64,000 nt of DNA from Terriglobales bacterium (GTDB lineage: Bacteria; Acidobacteriota; Terriglobia; Terriglobales; Acidobacteriaceae). Location of the stretch: assembly GCA_049696815.1 (NCBI GenBank), contig JBAVUO010000074.1, forward strand, positions 13,369 through 77,368, in the 5' to 3' direction. The notes under the pieces were generated by a model. That model did not search any database. It worked only from the letters and a program-made list of their open reading frames with translations, and was not told the origin of the DNA. Every line of letters begins with the position of its first letter. Within the stretch, counting starts at the first letter, position 1. Of this stretch, positions 880 to 31,246 are shown piece after piece. A program made the position numbers and the translations under genes.

Positions 880-2490
880 CTATCTCTTCAGCGCCTTCAC
901 GATCTCGCGCGCGGCGTTGGCGCCCGATCCGCCGGTCAACCCCGTCCCCGGATGCGTGCCATTCCCGCACAAATATAGCCGCTCAATCGGCGTCTTGTAC
1001 CGCGCCCAGTCGAGCAGCGGCCGCATAGTAAAGAACTGATCAAGCGCGAGTTCGCCGTGGAAGATGTGGCCACCCGTGAGTCCGTAAGTCTCTTCCAGAT
1101 CCTTGGGCGTGATGATCTGGTGGCTCAGGATTCGCTCGGGCAGGTTGGGAGCGTATTGCGCGATGGTCTTGACCACGGTCTCGCCGAGCGCGGTCCGCTG
1201 GCTCTCCCAGTCGCTGTTTCTCAGCTTGTAGGGCGCGTACTGCATGTAAATGGACATCACATGCCGGCCCGCGGGCGCGAGCGACGGATCGGAGAGCGAA
1301 GGGAACGCGATCTCGAGGTAGGGCTGGCGCGAGAAGTTGCCGTACTTCGACTCATCGAAAGCGCGCTCCAGATAGTCAATCTCGGGGCTGATCTGGATGC
1401 GGCCCTGGAGCAGGTTGCCGTTGCCCTTCGCCGTGAGCGCCGGGAAGTCTGGAAGAGCCGAGAGCGCCAGATTGATCTTCGCCACCGTTCCCATCGAGCG
1501 ATAGTTCTTGATTCTCCTGAGAAAGTCCGGAGCCAGGTGCGCAGGGTCGACCAAGCCCATCAGAGTACGCTTGGGGTCGGCGTTCGAGACAACGGCTTTG
1601 GCGGAGATTTCTTCGCCCGAAGTGAGAACAATTCCGGTGGCGACGCCGTCACTCACGCGAATCTCGGCCACGCCGGCGCCGGTGCGGATTTCCACACCTG
1701 CCTGTTGGGCAGGCGCGGCCATGGCCTGGGTGATCGAACCCGCGCCTCCGGCGGGGAATTGGACGCTCCCGGCCGGGTTGGGAGCAGCGGCGGCGCGCAA
1801 CAGCAGAACCAGCGCACTACCCGCGGACCAGGGGCCAAGGAATGTTCCGAAGATTCCGCGTGTGGCGACGGTGGCACGCAGGGGCTCAGACTCAAAGAAC
1901 TCTGCGACCAGATCGGCGACGGCCATGGGCGCCCAGCGCAGCACCCGGTACATATCTTTCTTGCCGAGGTTGCGGAGCGAGCGACCGGTCTTCAGCATTC
2001 CCCAGAGATCGCCGCTCGAGGGATCGTCAATATCGGGTGGCGTAAGCGCGAGCGCGTCTCCCATCACCTTGCCGATTTTGCCGAGGGCATTGCCGAATTC
2101 CGCGTAGGCGGCGGCGTCCTTCTGAGACCAGTGCGCGATTTCCTGCGCGGCTCGTTGAGGGTCGGAATAGAGAACCAGCGCGCGGCCATCCGGCAGCAGG
2201 GAAACCGTGCTCACGTCTGGCGTGGTGAGCTTGAGTCCGTGGCGCTCCAGGTGCATGTCGCGTGCGACGTCGGCGCGGAGCGGTCCCGTGTTGTGCGCGA
2301 GCGTGGAGCAACGGAAGCCGGGATGAAATTCCTCGGTGACCGCCGAGCCGCCGACTTGGGCGCGGCGTTCGAGCACCAGCGGCTTGAATCCAGCCTTGGC
2401 GAGATAGAAGGCGGCGACCAGGCCGTTGTGCCCGCCGCCGACGATGACGACATCGCGCGTTTCGGCCATTGGTCTACGCCCCCTTCCCAT
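880..2490 (-). CDS. NAD(P)/FAD-dependent oxidoreductase, phytoene-desaturase (CrtI)-related family
   Basis: 536-aa ORF with an N-terminal Rossmann motif DVVIVGGGHNGLVAAFYLAKAGFKPLVLERRAQVGGSAVTEE and a C-terminal LCGNGTHPGTGLTG typical of COG1233-type flavoproteins. The likely true start is M8 (2469), just after the stop of the upstream paralog. Confidence 0.85.
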   Translation of the reverse strand: MGRGRRPMAETRDVVIVGGGHNGLVAAFYLAKAGFKPLVLERRAQVGGSAVTEEFHPGFRCSTLAHNTGPLRADVARDMHLERHGLKLTTPDVSTVSLLPDGRALVLYSDPQRAAQEIAHWSQKDAAAYAEFGNALGKIGKVMGDALALTPPDIDDPSSGDLWGMLKTGRSLRNLGKKDMYRVLRWAPMAVADLVAEFFESEPLRATVATRGIFGTFLGPWSAGSALVLLLRAAAAPNPAGSVQFPAGGAGSITQAMAAPAQQAGVEIRTGAGVAEIRVSDGVATGIVLTSGEEISAKAVVSNADPKRTLMGLVDPAHLAPDFLRRIKNYRSMGTVAKINLALSALPDFPALTAKGNGNLLQGRIQISPEIDYLERAFDESKYGNFSRQPYLEIAFPSLSDPSLAPAGRHVMSIYMQYAPYKLRNSDWESQRTALGETVVKTIAQYAPNLPERILSHQIITPKDLEETYGLTGGHIFHGELALDQFFTMRPLLDWARYKTPIERLYLCGNGTHPGTGLTGGSGANAAREIVKALKR

Positions 2491-4108
2491 CTTTCAGAAT
2501 TTCGAGCGCGGCCAAGCGCCCGTTGGCGGCCATGATCCCGCCGCCCGGGTGGGTGGCCGACCCGCACATGTAGAGGTTCTTGATCGGAGTACGGAACTGC
2601 GCCCAGTCGGGGACCGGGCGCAGGAAGAAGAGTTGTTCGAGCGAGAGTTCGCCCTGGAAGATGTTGCCCTCGCTCAGCCCGAATTCGCGCTCCAGATCGA
2701 GTGGGGTCACGACCTGGCGGTGCAGGATGATGTCCTTGATATTGGGGGCGTACTCGGCAATGGTGTTGACCACGGTGTCGCCGAATTTCTCTTTCTCCGT
2801 TTCCCAGTCAAGCCCAGGCGCCAGCTTGTAGGGCGCGTATTGCACGAAGCAGGAGAGAATGTGCTTGCCCGGCGGCGCGAGCGAAGTATCGGTCAGGGTC
2901 GGGATCACCATGTCGATGTAGGGGCGGGTGGACCAGTGGCCGTACTTGGCCTCGTCGTAAGCCTTCTCCATGTAGTCAACGGCCGGAGAAATGGACATGG
3001 CGCCACGCTGGTGCGCGCCGATCCCCGGCAGACATTTGAATTCCGGCAGCGCATCGAGCGCCATGTTCACCTTTCCCGATGAGCCGCGGAACTTGTAGCG
3101 CTGCACTTGCTCCGTGAAATCATCGGGAAGGTTGCCGGGTTCGATCATCTTCACGAACGTAAGCCGCGGATCGACGCTGGAAGAAATGACGTCGGCCAAG
3201 ATCTCGTCGCCGCTGGTCAGCGCCACGCCGTATGCGCGTCCGTTCCTGACCAGGATCCTGGCGATCGGGGCCTCGGTGCGGATTTCGGCTCCGGCTTCGC
3301 GCGCCGCGTCGGCGATCGCGTTCGAAATGGCGCCGGTGCCACCGCGGGCGAATCCCCAGGCGCGGAAAGCGCCGTCAATCTCGCCCATGTAGTGGTGGAG
3401 CAAAACGTAGGCGGTTCCCGGCGAGCGCACGCCGAGGAAGGTGCCGATGATGCCCGAAGCCGACATGGTTGCCTTGAGCACGTCGGTCTCGAACCACTGG
3501 TCGAGGAAGCCGGCGGCACTCATGGTCATGAGCTGGACCTGGTTGTATTTGTCTTCGCTCGACATACCCTGGAAGCGGCGTCCGATGAAGAGCAGCTTCA
3601 TCAGTTCGCGCGGATTCAGGGTTGCCGGATCGGGAGGGACCATGCTCAGGATGGGCTTCACGAAGCGGCACAGGGCCTGCATCGCCTTGCCGAATTCGTC
3701 GTAAGCCTCAGCGTCAACGCGGGAATGGCGGGCGATCTCGCGGCGCGTCTTGCCGTGGTCGTTCACCCGCCAGAGATAGTCGCCGTTGGGCATGGGCGTG
3801 AACGTGCCGTCGAGCGGCAGGATCTCCAGTCCGTGGCGGGGAAGGTCGAGGTCGCGAATGATCTCCGGCCGCAAAAGCGAGACGACGTAGGAGCACACCG
3901 AAAACTTGAAGCCAGGAAAGATTTCCTCGGTGACTGCGGAACCGCCGAGCACGTAACGGCGCTCGAGCACCAACACTTTCTTTCCCGCTTTGGCGAGGTA
4001 GGCGGCATTGGTCAGGCCGTTGTGGCCTCCGCCAATGACGATGACGTCGTACTTCTTGCCGTTCGCAGCCGCAGGCATAGTTCGGTCCAGACGAAGAAAG
4101 ACTGTCAC
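2474..4108 (-). CDS. NAD(P)/FAD-dependent oxidoreductase, CrtI-related (tandem paralog of 880..2490)
   Basis: 544-aa ORF with YDVIVIGGGHNGLTNAAYLAKAGKKVLVLERRYVLGGSAVTEE and C-terminal MCGSATHPGGGIMA. It is colinear with the downstream gene over the full length. The start is possibly M11 (4078). Confidence 0.85.
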   Translation of the reverse strand: MTVFLRLDRTMPAAANGKKYDVIVIGGGHNGLTNAAYLAKAGKKVLVLERRYVLGGSAVTEEIFPGFKFSVCSYVVSLLRPEIIRDLDLPRHGLEILPLDGTFTPMPNGDYLWRVNDHGKTRREIARHSRVDAEAYDEFGKAMQALCRFVKPILSMVPPDPATLNPRELMKLLFIGRRFQGMSSEDKYNQVQLMTMSAAGFLDQWFETDVLKATMSASGIIGTFLGVRSPGTAYVLLHHYMGEIDGAFRAWGFARGGTGAISNAIADAAREAGAEIRTEAPIARILVRNGRAYGVALTSGDEILADVISSSVDPRLTFVKMIEPGNLPDDFTEQVQRYKFRGSSGKVNMALDALPEFKCLPGIGAHQRGAMSISPAVDYMEKAYDEAKYGHWSTRPYIDMVIPTLTDTSLAPPGKHILSCFVQYAPYKLAPGLDWETEKEKFGDTVVNTIAEYAPNIKDIILHRQVVTPLDLEREFGLSEGNIFQGELSLEQLFFLRPVPDWAQFRTPIKNLYMCGSATHPGGGIMAANGRLAALEILKDGKGA

Positions 4109-21295: not shown

Positions 21296-21420
21296 AGGAG
21301 GGCCTCTCAGCCGTCTGCGTTGGAGCGGGTTCCGCAATAGGCATTTACGTTTACCGCCCCGCTCAACTAGAATCTCAGTTCCTTAGAAGCTGACCGCAGC
21401 GGTCGTTTGGGGCTGGGCGG

Positions 21421-29076: not shown

Positions 29077-29094
29077 TTGACAGTTTCTCCTACA

Positions 29095-30024
29095 ATGGCC
29101 ACTGGTGAGCGTGCCTTGAATCCAGAGATTCCAAAGTCTCCAAATCCGGCTGCCGATCAAGGCGGGAGTCTCCGCGACAACCCCGAGATCGATGAGTTCT
29201 TCCACCGGCTGCCGTCGAACCTGCGCCGGCCAAAGCCGAGTGCCGAGGCGGTCGCGGCTGCCGTGGAAGCCATTCAGCGGCTGGCGGGAGGTGCGGACCA
29301 GGAGCCGCGTACGGCGGCCACGCGCCAGTTCACCCCCGGTACCTGCATGGGATGCGGGCAGCCGCTGGGAGAGGGAACGCGGTTTTGCGGGCATTGCGGT
29401 ATGCCGATCGCGGGCGCGACACAACCGGCCGCAGCGGGCCAGCACCACTACCACCATCACTACCATCATTTCATCCCAGCGCAGACTGGTTCGGGCCGTG
29501 GGCCCGCCGAAGCTGAACTCAGCCTTCCCCGCGGCCGTGCTGCTGCGGCCGGGACGGGCAGCGCCGCCGGTAGCCGCGCCGAGAACGCCGTCCGCCAGTT
29601 GGTCCAGGACTGGGCCCAGGGGTGCAACACCAGGCATCTCGATGACGTGCTGGAACTCTACGCTCCCGATGCCACGCTGGTCCGGGCCAATGTGGCCCCG
29701 GTGCGCAGCGTGCCCGCCATCCGCGAATTCCTCTTTGCCCTGCTCGAGGCCGGACTCGGAGACGTGGAAATGGAGTCTCTGCGGACCGAAGTCTTCGGCG
29801 AGATCGCGTTTGATATGGGACGCTCGAAGATGCTGGTGCCGGTGGCGATGGGCAAGCGACGCGAGGAGCGGGGCAAATACCTGGTGGTGATGGCCCGTCA
29901 ACCGGCGGGACACTGGAAGATCATTGCCGATTGCTGGTCGACCGACCTGAGCGTCAGCGGTCCGGCAGCGGTGGAACCGGTCCGCAAGCCGGGCGATGCC
30001 GGCGGCGCCAGGAAGACGCGCTGA
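29095..30024 (+). CDS. zinc-ribbon + His/Tyr-rich linker + NTF2-like (SnoaL/DUF4440-type) domain protein
   Basis: CMGCGQPLGEGTRFCGHCGMP (zinc ribbon), QHHYHHHYHHF, and C-terminal NAVRQLVQDWAQGCNTRHLDDVLELYAPDATL...GHWKIIADCW. The track start is 29077 (TTG). The - ORF 28888..29913 is a shadow. Confidence 0.7.
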   Translation: MATGERALNPEIPKSPNPAADQGGSLRDNPEIDEFFHRLPSNLRRPKPSAEAVAAAVEAIQRLAGGADQEPRTAATRQFTPGTCMGCGQPLGEGTRFCGHCGMPIAGATQPAAAGQHHYHHHYHHFIPAQTGSGRGPAEAELSLPRGRAAAAGTGSAAGSRAENAVRQLVQDWAQGCNTRHLDDVLELYAPDATLVRANVAPVRSVPAIREFLFALLEAGLGDVEMESLRTEVFGEIAFDMGRSKMLVPVAMGKRREERGKYLVVMARQPAGHWKIIADCWSTDLSVSGPAAVEPVRKPGDAGGARKTR

Positions 30025-30028
30025 GCCG

Positions 30029-31246
30029 TCAGTGGTTGTACACGGTTGTCTGCGGGTGATAATTCCGCCAGTCGAACCAGTAATCTTTCAGAACAGCGAT
30101 CTTCTCCAGACATTGTCCGGCGGCGGGACCGGCCACGGCGCATCCCTGAAAATTCCAGGTATTTCCTCCCGCGTCGATCAGTTGCCACTGCGGGCTTTGC
30201 TGGTCGCGGTAGAGTTCGATCTCCGAACCATTCAGCTGCGACCGAAACACGCGCACCGATTCGCCATCCGGCCCGGCCACCAGCACAACGGGAACGCCCG
30301 CCACCCTGTCGTGGACCGGACTCTGCGAGCGCACGCGCTCGAGAGGGAAGGCACGGGCCCGCTCGCCCATTTCCAGCCCGAGGACGATGTCGCGATCGGC
30401 AAGACCTTGCCCCGGGAAACTCAGAGGAACCGGCAACCTGGCGACCTCCTTTTCCCACTCGCTGTCGTAGTCTTTTTCGTGCCCGGTGACCGGCGCGAGC
30501 ACCATGCCGCGCGGCGACTCCGATTTCCACAGGGCGAAGGTCAATTCGTCACTCGCCACCGGCTCGAGCACCGTGCCGGCGAGCGGCCCGGAGATTGCCC
30601 GCCCGGTCACCTGCTGCCACCAGGAGCCGGTTTCGCGATCGCGCATCAGGAAGTTCTGGTTGTTGATGCCGGCGAGATAGAAATGCAGGCCCCGCCGCAT
30701 CGCTGTTCTGTTCCACACCAGACCGGTGTGACAGAGGGTTCAATAGGTGACGACAATCGGCACGCCTCCCACCGTGTCGTTCAATACGTGGTGGTAGGCC
30801 ATCTGCCGAATGGGATAAGCGCGCGCCTCCGGCCCAAAGCGCACCGTCATCACCATCTCCGGGTCGCCGAGGTCAGCATCGGTGGCGGCCAGGAACCCCG
30901 CTGCCGGAATCGGGCGAAACATCCATTCAAAGTAGTTCAACCGCACCATGACGGCGGCGCCCGCGCTCAGCAGGATCGCCAGCACTAACCCCGCCCTGCC
31001 AGCCCACGAGGACCTGCGCCACAGACCCGAGCCCAGAACCAGCACGCCTCCAAGAGTGGCCAGCGTGAGCAGCGGCGCGGCCCATTTGATGGCAATAGCC
31101 AGCGACAGAGCCGCTGGGGACTGGTATTGGAACGGCCGGATAATCACCGCCGGAACTAGAAACAAGCCCACGCCGACGATCGTCAGCAGGACAATCGGCA
31201 ACCAGCGCACGTAGTTCCGCCCATTCGAGACAGCCATGCGAGGCAC
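30029..31246 (-). CDS. DUF3179-domain membrane protein with one in-frame TGA at codon 169 (candidate selenocysteine, UxxC)
   Basis: Track ORFs 30740..31246 and 30029..30718 are in the same frame, giving 406 codons in total. The junction reads ..GGVPIVVTY-[TGA]-TLCHTGLVWNRT.., where DUF3179 proteins have ..VTYCPLCG... The N-terminus has three TM helices. Confidence 0.6.
30707..30735 (-). promoter_or_regulatory. SECIS-like stem-loop immediately 3' of the in-frame UGA
   Basis: The mRNA reads UGA-ACCC-UCUGU-CACACC-GGUCU-GGUGUG-GA-ACAGA. This gives 11 bp of stem with a GA bulge and a 5-nt apical loop that starts GG, about 15 nt after the UGA. Confidence 0.5.

Follow-up and report, generated by a model that had tools for sequence, protein, structure and literature searches.

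A 64,000-nt (64 kb) stretch of DNA from a Terriglobales bacterium, referred to below as the window and used for all coordinates, carries on its minus strand a predicted selenoprotein gene of the DUF3179 family (30029..31246, about 405 codons) that contains an in-frame UGA codon (30742-30740) followed closely by a hairpin. The UGA takes the first position of a predicted U-x-x-C motif (U, selenocysteine, Sec) within VTY-U-TLC-HTG, and the minus-strand RNA at the site reads GUC ACC UAU UGA ACC CUC UGU CAC ACC GGU CUG GUG UGG AAC AGA ACA GCG AUG. Gene callers break the gene at this codon into two open reading frames (ORFs), 30740..31246 and 30029..30718, which share one frame with the TGA as their junction; a previous sequence-only reading of the locus had arrived at the same nucleotide string and frame relation after correcting itself. 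With the TGA treated as a sense codon, a Pfam scan of the 405-residue product matched PF11376 (DUF3179) in a single stretch that covers residues 120-400 and crosses the TGA (E 2.3e-63), and an NCBIfam scan of the joined protein returned no family. In a search of 5.8 billion proteins, 118 of the 120 top homologues were fragments of about 230 aa starting at a GTG or ATG right after the hairpin, and such fragments, which begin past the TGA position, are the signature of a selenoprotein gene split by gene callers. Full-length homologues with 46% identity were also found, and these have Cys at the UGA position inside the same peptide, VTYCTLCHTGLVW. Because one Pfam domain and the homologue matches run across the UGA, the codon lies inside one gene. 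The DUF3179 domain is preceded by an N-terminal helical region of about 120 residues, for which the model of a homologue (P0119) predicts long helices and which is presumably a membrane anchor.

The hairpin occupies 30707-30735 on the minus strand, with the stems, bulge and loop that the sequence-only reading had drawn. Its upper stem pairs a 5′ arm CACACC (30730-30725, the His-Thr codons) with a 3′ arm GGUGUG (30719-30714, from the Leu-Val-Trp codons) across the apical loop GGUCU (30724-30720), which is made of the GGU of Gly and the CU of Leu and is the presumed SelB contact. The lower stem pairs UCUGU (30735-30731), within the spacer between UGA and upper stem, with ACAGA (30711-30707), and a GA bulge (30713-30712) separates the two helices. 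The lower stem starts 4 nt and the upper stem 9 nt past the UGA; 15 nt intervene between the UGA and the first loop G (18 nt counting from the U of UGA), matching the distance of about 15 nt given earlier. RNAfold placed the whole hairpin in both the minimum free energy (MFE) and the centroid structures of 56-nt and 161-nt contexts, so that the predicted fold survived the MFE check proposed for it, with free energies of -7.7 kcal/mol for the 17-nt core CACACC-GGUCU-GGUGUG, -13.7 kcal/mol for a 48-nt context with the core constrained and -18.5 kcal/mol for the 56-nt MFE structure.

A tblastn scan for orthologues, in which each species was represented by one genome, gave 80 loci; by their titles, nearly all come from metagenome-assembled genomes of Terriglobia or other Acidobacteriota (Acidobacteriaceae, Ca. 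Sulfotelmatobacter and others). Their best-segment identity to the window protein was 52-74%, the matches ran through the TGA, and in 79 of the 80 loci the TGA stood at the same position within the invariant peptide TY-U-TLCHTGLVW. In the remaining locus (L062; scan match 55%, residues 12-405) neither the TY[U/C]TLCHTG nor the AGINN motif was found in any plus-strand frame, possibly on account of masked bases or a frameshift; it was left out, and the 79 loci together with the window form the Sec-form set (n=80). An 18-nt sequence, CACACCGGTCTGGTGTGG, was identical in all 80 Sec forms, while the codons just upstream vary synonymously. The invariant part consists of the 17-nt core and the next G, and includes five synonymous sites. 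Since protein identity within the Sec clade falls as low as 52%, with neighbouring synonymous sites saturated, the invariance of the core does not come from recent common ancestry.

As a control, metagenomes were scanned with a fully degenerate back-translation of Y-C-T-L-C-H-T-G-L-V-W, which yielded 87 Cys-form sequences that encode the same peptide, YCTLCHTGLVW, and align Cys with the UGA position (TGC in 84, TGT in 3). All 80 Sec forms use CAC for the His codon, whereas the Cys forms divide between CAT (44) and CAC (43); Thr is ACC in every Sec form but ACC (43), ACG (30), ACA (11) or ACT (3) in the Cys forms; Gly is always GGT in the former and GGG (37), GGA (25), GGT (13) or GGC (12) in the latter. 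The same holds for Leu (CTG in 80 of 80, against CTG 51, TTG 15, CTC 13, CTT 7 and TTA 1) and for Val (GTG in 80 of 80, against GTG 28, GTC 25, GTA 18 and GTT 16). The exact 17-nt core was thus present in 80/80 Sec forms and in 2/87 Cys forms, with an expected frequency of 0.0069 under Cys-form codon usage, and the hairpin is not equally present in Cys-encoding homologues, a comparison that the sequence-only reading had named as a possible refutation. The free energy of the core was -7.7 kcal/mol in every Sec form, compared with a mean of -2.8 kcal/mol in the Cys forms, whose loops are GGGCU (27), GGACU (21), GGUCU (13), GGGUU (10), GGCCU (10) and others.

A codon-by-codon profile of synonymous entropy, covering codons -40 to +59 in both sets, located the constraint. 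In the Sec forms the entropy was 0 at codons +4 to +8, the only zero block in the profile, and other invariant degenerate residues over the same range had about 0.3-2.1 bits; the Cys forms had no dip anywhere. Low values also extended upstream of the core in the Sec forms, to 0.10, 0.43 and 0.23 bits at codons -1, +1 and +3. Codon -1 was UAU in 79/80 Sec forms, as against UAC in 56/87 Cys forms, codon +1 was ACG in 74/80 Sec forms, and the second Cys codon (+3) was UGU in 77/80 Sec and 49/87 Cys forms, although UGC would give a stronger closing pair. By this comparison the sequence context of the UGA is constrained beyond the hairpin, within 30731-30745; we can only guess that this reflects a termination context or a specific contact with SelB or the ribosome. 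Together, these profiles show strong purifying selection at the RNA level on the stem-loop and its 5′ context, and only where the codon is TGA.

The element resembles the selenocysteine insertion sequence (SECIS) of E. coli fdhF, likewise a coding-region hairpin directly 3′ of a Sec UGA with a 17-nt upper stem-loop. Both contain the GGUCU pentamer (GCA-GGUCU-GC in fdhF, CC-GGUCU-GG in the window), encoded in both by Gly-Leu (GGU CUG), and a check of E. coli K-12 confirmed the pentamer in the loop region of its fdhF SECIS (UGACACGGCCCAUCGGUUGCAGGUCUGCACC), which PMC4489274 also quotes. As the sequence-only reading had pointed out, the window loop opens with GG; it also includes the GGUC known from fdhF. 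The geometries differ: the upper stem starts 9 nt past the UGA in the window and 11 nt past it in fdhF, the loop Gs occupy nt 19-20 in the window and 22-23 in fdhF when counted from the U of UGA, which brings the window loop nearer by one codon, and the window has a 5-nt loop closed by C-G whereas fdhF has a GGUC tetraloop closed by A-U. Loop positions G23 and U24 are SelB determinants in the fdhF SECIS, and its GGUC loop and bulged U matter for function (PMC4489274). That bulged U (U17/U18) lies in the 5′ arm of the fdhF upper stem, whereas the upper stem of the Sec forms is a perfect 6-bp helix in 80/80 sequences. By analogy, the window element would work like that of fdhF without being an fdhF-type copy. 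In the SelB–RNA complex of Moorella thermoacetica, the RNA reportedly carries a GGUCU-type loop closed by C-G pairs. This complex of winged-helix domains 3-4 of SelB with a SECIS (PDB 1WSU, 2UWM) provides the structural paradigm, in which SelB takes hold of a short perfect hairpin by its apical loop. In typical SECIS elements the stem measures 6-8 bp and the conserved G of the loop stands some 20 nt from the UGA; the hairpin is held by the same two SelB domains at the mRNA entrance.

We also compared the element with the published model of bacterial SECIS (bSECIS) elements (bSECISearch; Zhang and Gladyshev, summarised in PMC13188914), which asks for a loop of 3-9 nt, a stem of 4-16 bp, a loop G[G|U], an MFE <= -7.5 kcal/mol and, for most elements, a spacing of 16-37 nt. 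The window element falls within the model in loop size (5 nt), stem length (6-7 bp), loop start (G-G-U) and energy (core, -7.7 kcal/mol), and its UGA lies within one domain, aligns with Cys and is accompanied by a structure specific to the UGA members; its spacing, 15 intervening nt or 18 nt from the U of UGA, is borderline, the counting convention of the model not being stated. The protein family has a selenoprotein record. DUF3179, an already catalogued family of UxxC/T selenoproteins, was first described by Zhang and Gladyshev (2007) in symbionts of Olavius algarvensis, and both the 2022 and the 2026 review of selenoproteomes list it. At NCBI, relatives bear the name 'DUF3179 domain-containing (seleno)protein', and Acidobacteria have been credited with selenoproteins since 2006. 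The window protein has the same PF11376 domain as the other family members, with predicted Sec as the first residue of U-x-x-C, aligned with Cys; its clade consists of Terriglobia (Acidobacteriota) and is deposited almost entirely as truncated C-terminal ORFs.

A hairpin at this place could be a mere by-product of the H-T-G-L-V-W codons, with no function as RNA. The peptide does lean that way: H-T-G-L-V-W of DUF3179 by itself nearly spells a SelB-binding hairpin, the fixed first and second codon positions are already complementary (CA-AC / GU-UG), at least four of the six pairs are possible in all 87 Cys forms and all six in 28, and the same hairpin appears in the 60-nt MFE structure of 21 of them. 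However, the five synonymous sites are frozen in every Sec form and free in the Cys forms, although both encode the identical peptide. Selection therefore acts on the core as RNA, and the peptide does not carry it along; the entropy dip is likewise confined to the Sec forms and to the hairpin, and the GGUCU loop occurs in 13/87 Cys forms as against 80/80 Sec forms. As the Sec forms are not near-identical and their neighbouring synonymous sites are saturated, we consider this explanation effectively refuted and give it almost no weight. It is also extremely improbable that the UGA is a real stop in a pseudogene or between two genes (168 aa and 229 aa), which would make the hairpin irrelevant or turn it into a terminator or attenuator. 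The listing of nearly all top homologues as C-terminal fragments alone and the GTG start right after the hairpin would fit such a stop, but a single Pfam domain spans the UGA, the protein sequence on either side of it is conserved in 79 other genomes, where the TGA invariably occupies the Cys-aligned position, full-length Cys homologues exist, and no U run follows the hairpin. A third possibility is read-through independent of SelB, in which a suppressor tRNA, an allo-tRNA or a near-cognate tRNA for Trp or Cys decodes the UGA, the hairpin acts as a generic stimulator and a residue other than Sec is inserted. Acidobacteria carry unusual allo-tRNAs, possible nonsense suppressors, and no Sec machinery was seen in the window in a tRNA scan or with E. 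coli SelA, SelB and SelD as tblastn queries. Against this, the invariant GGUCU is the SelB-binding loop pentamer of fdhF, which a generic roadblock hairpin would not need, the position aligns with the Cys of a CxxC motif in the classic Sec/Cys pairing, and DUF3179 is a recognised selenoprotein family; we see only a slim chance for read-through of this kind. Recoding by a selC*-type tRNA-Cys in particular was rejected because such tRNAs have not been reported in Acidobacteria.

How much of the hairpin belongs to the functional unit is a separate matter, and here the comparison bore out only part of the SECIS proposed by the sequence-only reading: the upper stem-loop is conserved and Sec-specific, but the lower stem and GA bulge have neither covariation nor selection behind them. 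The RNAalifold consensus of 77 distinct Sec-form sequences contained only UCACACC/GGUGUGG, a stem of 7 bp including a U.G wobble between U12 (30731) and G30 (30713), and the loop. When the pairs of the structure as originally drawn were counted in 68 distinct Sec-form sequences, the six upper pairs formed in 68/68, whereas the lower pairs 10-34, 11-33 and 12-32 formed in 14, 2 and 40; compensatory changes were absent, and the lower pairs were no commoner than in shuffled sequences. It is therefore unlikely that this organism uses the full two-helix structure (UCUGU/ACAGA, GA bulge and upper stem) as its functional unit, although it is the MFE structure in the window and most orthologues can make some lower helix of 3-5 bp in one register or another. 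Counting any lower helix irrespective of register, the real 3′ flanks gave -14.84 kcal/mol against -14.80 kcal/mol for synonymous recodings (z -0.08, p 0.71) and were thus no more stabilising, and codons +10 to +12 showed normal synonymous variation in the Sec forms. At least about 13 nt past the A-site codon are threaded single-stranded through the ribosome to reach the loop, so that a lower helix would have to be open during decoding. In E. coli, where the minimal SECIS consists of the 17-nt upper stem-loop and can largely do without the lower stem, unpairing of the lower region does lower read-through, but only by about 25%. The lack of conservation of the lower part in the window element agrees with these data, and the lower-stem 3′ arm and GA bulge, present in the window sequence and not conserved, are accidents of that sequence outside the conserved element. 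The 5′ arm UCUGU is a different case, lying in the conserved spacer (CUC in 60/80 Sec forms, followed by the UGU described above); as its sequence is conserved and its partner is not, the spacer is probably constrained for a reason other than the lower helix. On synonymous-codon entropy, the conserved unit is a 33-nt block (30713..30745, minus strand), UAU UGA ACN CUC UGU CAC ACC GGU CUG GUG UGG, comprising UAU, the UGA, a 9-nt spacer of conserved sequence and a stem-loop of 17-19 nt.

The explanation that fits best is that the hairpin just past the UGA is a functional bacterial SECIS, to which we assign a probability of about 0.88. We infer that the UGA is decoded as Sec and not as another residue, and that the hairpin binds SelB. 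With the UGA of the DUF3179 mRNA in the A site, the 17-nt stem-loop, extended by the U.G pair and starting 9 nt past the UGA, would be placed at the mRNA entrance of the ribosome, where the C-terminal winged-helix domains of SelB would bind the GGUC loop bases. SelB would then deliver Sec-tRNA(Sec), and the UGA would be read as selenocysteine to give the U-x-x-C motif. The conserved spacer and the UAU before the UGA may tune competition with release factor RF2 or act through the P-site codon, which is a guess.

Several observations weigh against a SECIS. The folding energy of the window sequence lies within chance (dinucleotide-shuffle z = -1.21, with 24/200 shuffles as good, and -0.55) and is ordinary for such a G+C-rich sequence; the thermodynamics of a single sequence therefore cannot decide the question, and significance comes from the comparative data only. 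The upper stem never varies among the 68 sequences and so offers no classical covariation, which left the proposed covariation check of the TGA orthologues uninformative for the upper stem, as it was negative for the lower. A covariance-model scan, another check suggested beforehand, gave no Rfam SECIS family in the 64-kb window at the gathering threshold, and between 30500 and 30900 at E <= 10 it returned noise only (MIR394, snoRNAs). ARAGORN found no tRNA-Sec in the window, where it reported only a tRNA-Lys, or in loci L001-L060, and E. coli SelA, SelB and SelD had no tblastn match in 1.23 Mb of window and loci; as Sec genes are usually unlinked, their absence near the gene is uninformative rather than negative. 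The UGA-to-loop distance of 15 nt is 1 nt under the 16-37 range, if that range counts intervening nt, and the upper stem has no bulged U, unlike fdhF. Finally, Sec insertion at this UGA is proposed from sequence comparison.

In a neighbour-joining tree (no bootstrap values) the 80 Sec forms were monophyletic, and the two nearest Cys outgroups still had the hairpin. The Cys form L089 (metagenome contig WNGB01261098.1) reads TAT TGC ACG CTC TGT CACACC GGTCT GGTGTG and equals the Sec consensus over 33 nt except for the TGC; another Cys form, L100, has the exact core, L091 has CATACC with one U.G pair, and in L165 the hairpin is lost. We read the hairpin in the nearest Cys lineages as a probable fossil SECIS left after Sec-to-Cys reversion. 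A less favoured but possible alternative is that the hairpin is older than the Sec codon, H-T-G-L-V-W having pre-adapted the site. If the states of L089, L100 and L091 are ancestral, the protein motif would have pre-adapted the gene to conversion from Cys to Sec by a single nucleotide change. In a related and similarly improbable reading, the unusually short 15-nt spacing and the invariant 5′ spacer would reflect a lineage-specific extended SECIS or SelB geometry.

For the soluble DUF3179 domain (30029-30880, minus strand), we used an AlphaFold model of the Cys homologue P0119 (predicted local distance difference test 69.9, predicted template modelling score 0.57). Foldseek returned about 50 PDB matches, almost all of them Rieske [2Fe-2S] domains, weak and uniform (best E 4e-3), with 75-85 residues aligned at about 3-4 A and template modelling scores of 0.52-0.54 to small Rieske ferredoxins. 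A family-invariant Y-H-H lies 15 residues before U/C-x-x-C-H and resembles the Rieske CxH-X15-17-CxxH spacing. Scanned against Pfam at E <= 10, the motif region matched DUF3179 only and no Rieske family, leaving the fold likeness without sequence support, and phmmer against PDB found no match; as a lead only, the Sec might be a metal ligand in DUF3179.

The DUF3179 gene is alone on the minus strand, flanked by plus-strand genes. The adjoining ORF (29077-30024, plus strand, 315 aa) converges on its 3′ end; in the encoded protein a CxxC...CxxC segment (CMGCGQPLGEGTRFCGHCG) comes before a run rich in His and Tyr, HHYHHHYHH. A search of the window for a second selenoprotein gene, with an in-frame TGA and a GG/GU or GGUC loop, yielded only weak candidates: other TGAs in open frames with a short G-started hairpin lie at 21391 (+), 62739 (+), 37742 (-), 19330 (-) and 20219 (+). 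Their stems of 5-6 bp carry arbitrary loops, none resembles the element at 30742, and all five are probably due to chance. In locus L035 the DUF3179 gene is preceded, at a distance of about 200 nt, by a transfer-messenger RNA gene (2420-2805, plus strand; tag ANQQMAYAA), probably by coincidence.

The hairpin is very probably a real Sec-insertion signal. As its gene, from a soil acidobacterium, belongs to a selenoprotein family that is already catalogued, the finding is well supported but ordinary, and it leaves the current understanding of Sec decoding unchanged. The element lies at the short end of accepted UGA-to-loop spacing and is relevant to the thresholds of SECIS searches. The Sec/Cys pair is an unusually clean natural experiment, in which the same 11 residues are encoded in the presence and in the absence of a SECIS: it shows how synonymous sites are frozen by an RNA signal, with the constraint limited to the upper stem-loop and its 5′ context. 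In public databases this gene and nearly all its orthologues from Terriglobia stand as truncated ORFs of about 230 aa. Their annotation should be extended to full-length selenoproteins of about 400 aa, a change that adds a widespread selenoprotein to the Acidobacteriota of peat and soil.

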